64,000 nucleotides of DNA from assembly GCF_050920415.1 (NCBI RefSeq), contig NZ_CP169309.1; one strand, given 5' to 3'. The notes beneath the pieces were generated by a model that saw nothing but the letters and a program-made list of their open reading frames with translations, was not told where the DNA came from and made no database searches. The translations under genes and the position numbers were made by a program. Positions 9,445 through 9,795 of this stretch are shown in pieces; position 1 is the first letter of the stretch; the number at the start of each line of letters is the position of its first letter. The stretch is from Escherichia coli (GTDB taxonomy: Bacteria > Pseudomonadota > Gammaproteobacteria > Enterobacterales > Enterobacteriaceae).

Positions 9445-9795
9445 ACCTTCATCAATGTTTTTACCCGAGAGGGCTGGGGTGAGGCTTTTCCCTCACCCAA
9501 ACCCTCTCCGTGAGGAGAGGGGCCGCGCCGGATGCGGCGCAAACGCCTTATCCGGCCTACAAGAACGTGCAAATTCAACAAATTGTGCTTTTTTTTGTAG
9601 GCCTGATAAGCGTAGCGCATCAGGCAATCAGCCCATCTTCTCCATGTGGAGAGGGGCCGCGCCGGTTGCGGCGTAAACGCCTTATCCGGCCTACAAGAAC
9701 GTGCAAATTCAACAAATTGTGCTTTGTTTTTGTAGGCCTGATAAGCGTAGCGCATCAGGCAATTAGCCCCACCGTCTCCATGTGGAGAGAGTGGG
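9445..9795. repeat. Tandemly duplicated BIME (REP pair) cluster between mtlA and mtlD
   Basis: A unit of about 140 bp containing gccggatgcggcgcaaacgccttatccggcctacaag and gtaggcctgataagcgtagcgcatcaggca occurs twice (about 9509-9650 and 9652-9790). Confidence 0.75.

Follow-up and report, generated by a model that had tools for sequence, protein, structure and literature searches.

REP sequences are extragenic, imperfect palindromes of 30-40 nt that carry a conserved GTAG on the 5' side of the stem foot (PMC3333891), for which the published E. coli consensus is GCCGGATGCGGCGTGAACGCCTTATCCGGCCTACGA (PMC12306157). BIMEs built from y- and z2-type REPs occur as tandem copies in numbers that vary between strains (PMC3333891), and PMC1187871, citing Bachellier 1997, likewise states that strains differ in the copy number of y/z2 BIMEs. 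In the class described as BIME-2 (Gilson, Bachellier, Hofnung; PMC3333891, PMC1187871), inverse y and z2 REPs alternate in extragenic tandem arrays whose copy number at one locus depends on the strain, and the array reported here shares all of these properties. REP325, the source of naRNA4 (RF02564), is likewise a tandem REP-pair array between two co-transcribed genes, yjdM and yjdN. REP325 itself stabilises the upstream mRNA and attenuates the downstream gene; it differs from the mtl array in having six repeats, with Rho dependence in the full array only. Its deletion brought the yjdM/yjdN ratio from ~35 to ~1, with the upstream yjdM transcript going down and the downstream yjdN transcript going up about tenfold, and REP325 fragments of 2-4 hairpins were insufficient for Rho-dependent termination (bioRxiv 10.64898/2026.03.23.713779). 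More generally, REP hairpins act as exonuclease barriers that define protected 3' ends after Rho-dependent termination (PMC6061677).

The window that we analysed is a 64,000-nucleotide stretch of E. coli DNA (contig NZ_CP169309.1). Its minus-strand ORFs at 9802-11715 and 8289-9437 are annotated as mtlA and mtlD, respectively, in the identical RefSeq record NZ_CP169399.1 (E. coli MFDS1022581; identity holds over the 764 bases of the window that were queried). The spacer between the two genes is 364 bp long (9438-9801) and contains an array of two tandem units of 134/135 bp each. Tandem Repeats Finder reported a single array, at 9501-9789, with a period of 134, 2.1 copies, 92% matches and a score of 508. 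A repeat search returned direct repeats of 92 nt and 46 nt with 95-96% identity at a spacing of 134-135 nt, together with a 22-nt motif that is present three times in the spacer and brackets each unit. In global alignments the two units, A and B, are identical in 126 of 136 columns (93%), and their REP-pair parts in 109 of 112 (97%). The first-pass annotation was therefore right to describe two nearly identical REP-pair units between mtlA and mtlD, while its unit length of 140 bp has to be corrected to the period given above. The two REPs of each unit are inverse in orientation. The interval that it assigned to the duplication, 9445-9795, does contain the array but corresponds to essentially the whole spacer and not to the array alone.

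On the mRNA strand, every unit is ordered as a z2-type REP, a linker of 36-37 nt, an inverted y-type REP and a short boxC-type hairpin; all features in this paragraph are on the minus strand. The mtlA stop codon (9802-9804) is followed after 4 nt by a 31-nt leader hairpin (ACCCCACTCTCTCCACATGGAGACGGTGGGG, 9767-9797, folding at -17.5 kcal/mol), which duplicates, in diverged form, the first hairpin of the boxC-like core described below and is the first copy of the 22-nt direct repeat. The mtlA-proximal unit A (9628-9762, 135 nt) comprises a 29-nt z2-type REP (GCCTGATGCGCTACGCTTATCAGGCCTAC, 9732-9760, hairpin of -13.2 kcal/mol), a 37-nt, L-motif-like tail-to-tail linker (9695-9731), a 34-nt y-type REP (9661-9694) that begins with GTAG and reads GTAGGCCGGATAAGGCGTTTACGCCGCAACCGGC in the mRNA, and a junction hairpin. 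The inter-unit junction, or head-to-head linker (GCGGCCCCTCTCCACATGGAGAAGATGGGCTGATT, 9626-9660, 35 nt), holds a small hairpin and is a hybrid in which the left arm derives from the core's first hairpin and the right arm from the leader hairpin; its sequence is diagnostic for arrays with at least two units. Unit B continues with a z2-type REP identical to that of unit A (9597-9625), a 36-nt tail-to-tail linker that shares an IHF-like motif with its counterpart (9561-9596) and a y-type REP (9527-9560, hairpin of -19.5 kcal/mol). The boxC-like core (9463-9522) is a GC-rich double hairpin of 60 nt that immediately precedes the ribosome-binding region of mtlD. It has the sequence CCCCTCTCC TCAC GGAGAGGG TTT GGGTGAGGG AAAAG CCTCACCC CAG CCCTCTC GGG, with its first hairpin supplying the third copy of the 22-nt direct repeat that brackets the units. 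The mtlD translation-initiation region (TAAAAACATTGATGAAGGTTAATACT, 9438-9462), which leads to the ATG at 9435-9437, is unaffected by the number of units.

The four palindromes of the 364-bp spacer carry GTAG/CTAC at each foot, as the definition of a REP requires, and fold at -13 to -19.5 kcal/mol, and the y REPs match the published consensus in 33 of 36 positions both at 9527-9562 and at 9661-9696 (plus strand). The z REPs were called z2 and not z1 by their length of 29 nt, the form found in B2-lineage alleles having 35 nt. A z2 and a y REP stand tail to tail across a 36-37-nt linker twice in the spacer, which makes each pair a BIME. The motif TGCC/TGAT (the slash marking the cleaved position) is present in z-type iREPs and absent from y-type ones, and together with GCC/TAC it constitutes the TnpA-REP cleavage sites of z-type iREPs (PMC3333891); each z2 REP at this locus has both motifs, and the presence of the first separated z-type from y-type REPs in our assignment.

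The combination of y and z2 REPs, and tandem copies that vary from 0 to 3 among 5,426 complete genomes, are what is expected of a BIME-2, and by REP content and behaviour we class the array as one. Its linkers appear to differ from those of that class. A BIME-2 is expected to have a short S linker with flanking s/l/r motifs, whereas both linker types here, compared by length, are 35-37 nt long; the tail-to-tail linker resembles the L motif, though it may be of the l type, and the 35-nt head-to-head linker is a locus-specific hairpin derived from the neighbouring boxC-like element. By linker content, the array may be classified as an atypical BIME, given that it combines z2 REPs with an L-like linker in several copies and that B2-lineage alleles at the locus mix z2, z1 and y; that class is defined by exclusion, however, so membership in it says little. 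The array also resembles BIME-1 (RIP/RIB) elements, which have the order y - L - z1 and an IHF site, in that the mtl y REP is followed by a 9-nt gap and a CAAATTCAAnAnATTG linker motif. BIME-1 elements exist as single copies that are either present or absent, whereas the mtl array is tandem, and its partner REP is a 29-nt z2 and not a 35-nt z1. Assignment to BIME-1 was rejected on the short z2 partner and the tandem repetition.

The tail-to-tail linker carries CAAATTCAACAAATTG 9 nt from the y REP, which at this spacing we take to be the L motif of BIME-1/RIP elements. Within it, the plus strand reads ATTCAACAAATTG at 9707-9719 in unit A and has the identical IHF-like motif at 9573-9585 in unit B, each matching the IHF consensus in 12 of 13 positions. 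This raises an alternative in which the array acts at the level of DNA, with gyrase bound at the y/z2 BIMEs and IHF at the L-like linkers, so that the duplication doubles a topological or architectural site. BIMEs do bind IHF, DNA polymerase I and gyrase (PMC3333891), and the consensus match in each linker falls within a motif that recurs in a y+L element elsewhere in the window. Matches to the IHF consensus with one mismatch are, on the other hand, no commoner in the window than in shuffled sequence (62 against 57.7 expected), and the REP325 study attributes to that array no role in chromosome compaction or long-range contacts (bioRxiv 10.64898/2026.03.23.713779). We consider a DNA-level role unlikely. 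The call of an IHF site from the consensus alone was dropped as being at chance level, and what we retain is the resemblance of the linker to an L motif found elsewhere in the window.

That other occurrence, the y+L element, lies at 54538-54600 (CAAATTCAATATATTG); over 54538-54610 on the plus strand, a y-type REP is followed by CAAATTCAATATATTGCAG, presumably the classic L/IHF-type motif, and then by a degenerate or missing partner REP. It has in common with the mtl linkers both the CAAATTCAAnAnATTG motif and the 9-nt spacing from the y REP, and it looks like a partial BIME-1-like element. The window also contains a further inverted REP pair at 464-512, with CTTATCCGTCCTAC on the plus strand and CTTATCAGACCTAC on the minus strand across a linker of ~21 nt, and a lone REP-like tail at 40362-40375.

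A search of 8000-12500 against Rfam at a permissive threshold produced nothing except sub-threshold naRNA4 (RF02564) matches on the minus strand, at 9501-9557, 9655-9691 and 9735-9813. All of them fall on REPs and they score 36.6, 32.7 and 22.6 bits, below the gathering score of 59.5; they reflect nothing beyond REP sequence in common. No known RNA family therefore accounts for the spacer.

The first-pass annotation had proposed a comparison of copy number across strains. Spacers with 0, 1, 2 and 3 units all exist among the 5,426 complete E. coli genomes that form our comparison set. The 0-unit spacer is 94 bp long (O157:H7 and others, e.g. E. coli O157:H7 WS4202), the one-unit spacer 228/229 bp (K-12, with 229 bp, BL21 and most genomes), the two-unit spacer 363/364 bp and the three-unit spacer 498 bp. 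B2-type strains have a spacer of 318/319 bp with the composition z2 - short linker - y - z1 - y (two loci in our set, L010 and L011). In E. coli ABU 83972 an additional 100-bp z1-y unit extends the spacer to 419 bp, so a second, independent kind of tandem unit varies in number at the mtl locus. Among 59 evenly spaced chromosomes, ~63% were one-unit, 17% no-unit and 18% B2-type, and 930 of the 5,426 genomes showed less than 80% query coverage, consistent with the no-unit class.

A full census of length classes had to be replaced because BLAST pieces from one-unit genomes join to full coverage. We used instead a 61-nt query centred on the inter-unit junction, for which one-unit genomes cannot seed a match. 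It matched 18 of the 5,426 genomes, eight with one junction (two units, including the present strain) and ten with two junctions (three units), corresponding to 0.15% and 0.18% of complete genomes, and these figures are a lower bound because the census requires a 28-nt exact seed. Four of the ten three-unit genomes were checked by gene coordinates. The element itself is well known and unstable in copy number, and the two-unit spacer, a rare length variant of it, is ordinary in kind; strain differences in y/z2 BIME length were already established, and the present allele is a rare one of that known kind. It adds another example of BIME length polymorphism, a property of E. coli described in the 1990s. 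Our literature search found nothing on a REP or BIME at mtlA-mtlD specifically; the original mtl operon sequence papers reportedly noted REP sequences in this spacer.

The same census bears on a trivial explanation, that the second unit is an assembly error (a collapsed or expanded repeat) or that the spacer is coding on the plus strand. Two open reading frames do run mechanically across the array on that strand (9455-9676, 73 aa, and 9510-9869, 119 aa). Both were rejected as genes, since they are made of REP sequence, extend antisense into mtlA and are missing or rearranged in the 0-, 1- and 3-unit alleles. As for an assembly error, two units are found in eight independent complete assemblies, the present one and seven others that have the same architecture with differing SNPs, and three units in ten, which indicates that the array is not an artefact. 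We regard the probability of either explanation as negligible.

The organization of the alleles suggests how the units were gained and lost. Copies of a boxC-type hairpin of ~22 nt, with the motif CTCTCC-N4-GGAGA, bracket every unit. In the 0-unit allele the left part of the leader copy is fused exactly to the right part of the core copy and the core is retained. The internal junction has the reciprocal composition, matching the sequence upstream of the core in its left part and the leader in its right part, and all examined two- and three-unit arrays share CCCCTCTCCACATGGAGAAGATGGGCT(A/G)A at their internal junctions, with the variant GAAGATGGG. From the hybrid junction, the bracketing hairpin copies and the end points of the 0-unit allele, we infer that the second unit would have arisen from the first when the short bracketing direct repeats underwent unequal crossover or replication slippage. 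Once two units were present, further ones could be gained or lost by exchange within the full 134-bp homology, and the clean 0-unit deletion may have used the same bracketing repeats. One BIME and the leader hairpin are present in E. albertii and in two other species-level genome representatives labelled E. coli, and hence the one-unit spacer is probably ancestral in Escherichia and the empty spacer derived. In its coding flanks the present strain is nearest to the three-unit strains, with 6-9 differences in 960 nt, and two other two-unit strains differ from it by 22-23 nt, so the arrays either moved by recombination or arose more than once.

Ton-Hoang et al. propose TnpA-REP activity as a source of BIME amplification (PMC3333891), and the extra unit could alternatively have been added by a TnpA-REP/RAYT enzyme, through cleavage and strand transfer at C/T sites of the iREP or linker and not through homologous recombination. 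The enzyme cleaves z-type iREPs at TGCC/TGAT and GCC/TAC and yields products with added REPs in vitro (PMC3333891), and both motifs are, as noted, available in each z2 REP at mtl. Tandem-repeat register alone cannot separate the two routes. However, the internal junction is a hybrid of two bracketing hairpins, as unequal homologous exchange predicts, and does not lie at an iREP cleavage motif, and the 0-unit deletion has end points that match those of the junction. An enzymatic origin of the second unit therefore appears improbable to us.

With respect to function, we favour a reading in which the array is a y/z2 BIME array, the two-unit allele of a 0/1/2/3 series, that is co-transcribed as structured mRNA and attenuates mtlD and mtlR; we put its probability at about 0.6. 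The array anatomy, the allelic series, the hairpin bracketing and the hybrid junction were read directly from the DNA, and the function is assigned by analogy. The effect assumed by the first-pass annotation, stabilisation of the upstream mRNA and attenuation of the downstream gene by REP arrays within operons, is a published one for other loci, namely REP325 in yjdMN. A consensus scan of 9200-10100 detected neither a sigma-70 promoter nor an intrinsic terminator, which implies that mtlD and mtlR rely on read-through from the mtlA promoter. The array would accordingly be part of the mtlADR mRNA, in which it is predicted to fold into four REP hairpins and additional linker hairpins. The REP hairpins would block 3'-to-5' exonucleases and thereby protect the mtlA mRNA, and the longer untranslated gap would reduce read-through into the two downstream genes. 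If the mtl array behaves like those at other loci, it is expected to shift the balance from mtlD and mtlR towards mtlA. The predicted minimum free energy of the spacer RNA is -43.1 kcal/mol without a unit (z-score against shuffled controls -3.8), -115.6 kcal/mol with one unit (-8.0) and -173.5 kcal/mol with two (-9.3). A second unit, adding 135 nt and about -58 kcal/mol, would be expected to strengthen polarity only modestly.

Two other routes to altered expression were considered. We looked for a C-rich, G-poor Rho-loading stretch in the spacer mRNA and saw none (C/G ratio of 1.05). In the criterion quoted by PMC12306157, REP-mediated translational down-regulation involves a REP located no more than 15 nt downstream of the stop codon; the first REP here lies 41 nt past the mtlA stop, and the hairpin found at 4 nt is not a REP. 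Published tables of E. coli 3' ends contain no mtlA 3' end, which is probably attributable to the operon being uninduced under the conditions used. An RNA 3' end antisense to mtlD, near the 3' end of that gene, is among those that PMC7815308 tabulates for K-12 in its supplement; its K-12 position, 3775490 on the minus strand, corresponds to approximately position 8371 on the plus strand of the window.

The suggestion in the first-pass annotation that copy number may tune the mtlA to mtlD ratio receives lukewarm support, and the distribution of unit numbers among strains speaks against tight selection. In a purely neutral account, the array would not alter mtl expression measurably at any copy number, and the second unit would be a passenger that arose by slippage or recombination and is drifting. 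Seven length classes coexist at the mtl locus, the 0-unit allele is found in ~930 of 5,426 genomes including O157:H7, and multi-unit alleles are very rare (18 of 5,426). The distribution of copy number looks more like the drift of an unstable repeat than like a set point. Because ~17% of genomes are without the BIME and B2-type strains carry other REPs, the operon evidently works without this array. The effects of REPs on mRNA are, moreover, context dependent and sometimes absent (bioRxiv 10.64898/2026.03.23.713779), which also favours neutrality. Against it stand the significant genome-wide bias towards expression of the upstream gene in tandem gene pairs separated by REPs (bioRxiv 10.64898/2026.03.23.713779), the very stable mRNA structure that each unit adds, and the order-wide conservation of a structured element in this spacer, which suggests that position matters. 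Strict neutrality of the whole array seems to us a possible but doubtful account, while the copy number of the second unit is probably close to neutral. For the attenuation that we favour, the locus offers a natural allelic series of 0-3 units of identical type within one well-understood inducible operon. With this series one could measure how operon polarity, mRNA half-life and Rho dependence respond to REP dosage. The question arises from the REP325 work.

The boxC-like core, which is present in every spacer allele including the 0-unit one, is less ordinary than the BIME array. In order to follow it beyond E. coli we scanned species-representative genomes for the start of mtlD and obtained 120 loci. 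The core occupies the same position upstream of mtlD at 46 of them, in ~20 genera, all or nearly all belonging to the Enterobacteriaceae. Outside its variable loop the core has a median identity of 93% to the E. coli copy, whereas in those genomes the identity at four-fold synonymous sites of the neighbouring mtlD is 44%. The long hairpin of the core is paired in 93% of cells, and three of its pairs have changed on both sides (e.g. CCA/TGG and TTC/GAA). For the GGAGAGGG arm there are pairing partners on both its upstream and its downstream side, and the two resulting folds are predicted to be nearly isoenergetic. We know of no function assigned to this 60-nt element, which is not in Rfam, and likewise of no function of boxC itself. 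Since one copy is held in place across genera, the element is worth separate study.

The boxC/TM_ECO family has been described as an intrastrand-triplex motif (PMC4666352). The core and the bracketing hairpins resemble it in their CCCTCTCC - loop - GGAGAGGG - N3 - GGGTGAGGG layout. The strict consensus, CCCTCNCCC N3-6 GGGNGAGGG N3 GGGNGAGGG, is not matched anywhere in the window when up to two mismatches are allowed, and strict membership of the E. coli core, which has arms of 8 nt and not 9 nt, was rejected; of 45 orthologous cores from other genera, 16 conform to the strict consensus. Furthermore, boxC is pictured as 'unstable', whereas the mtl core is conserved in position across genera. 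One could imagine a two-layer module in which the boxC-like element sets the basal coupling between mtlA and mtlD/mtlR and the number of BIMEs (0-3) serves as a heritable dial for read-through. The dose of the downstream repressor MtlR would then be set by unit number, and strains would differ in the kinetics of mannitol induction through repeat number alone; we mention this module as a speculation that is very unlikely to be correct.

Between the mtlA stop codon and the core, different small repeats are found genus by genus, as if this segment were a landing pad. Escherichia spacers contain BIMEs, that of E. albertii being a z2-y BIME with a short linker, and genus-specific single REPs occur in Citrobacter (L029, L075, L087 and L127 in our locus set) and in Salmonella enterica subsp. 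arizonae. Citrobacter werkmanii, C. youngae and C. braakii (L019, L044 and L099) carry a 125-nt ERIC/IRU-like element, which we take to be ERIC. Spacers that have no core (Vibrio, Pectobacterium, Sodalis, Brenneria, Serratia, Pantoea and others) almost always contain a stable GC-rich hairpin. A hairpin followed by a T-run, resembling an intrinsic terminator, is present in 26 of 68 core-less spacers compared with 2 of 46 core-bearing ones, and Pantoea and Erwinia have a four-arm nested palindrome with a layout analogous to that of the enterobacterial core. A structured hairpin, often a true terminator, is found between mtlA and mtlD throughout Enterobacterales and Vibrionales. The occurrence of ordinary hairpins outside Enterobacteriaceae implies that a structured mtlA-mtlD element is ancestral and that the BIME units were added onto it.
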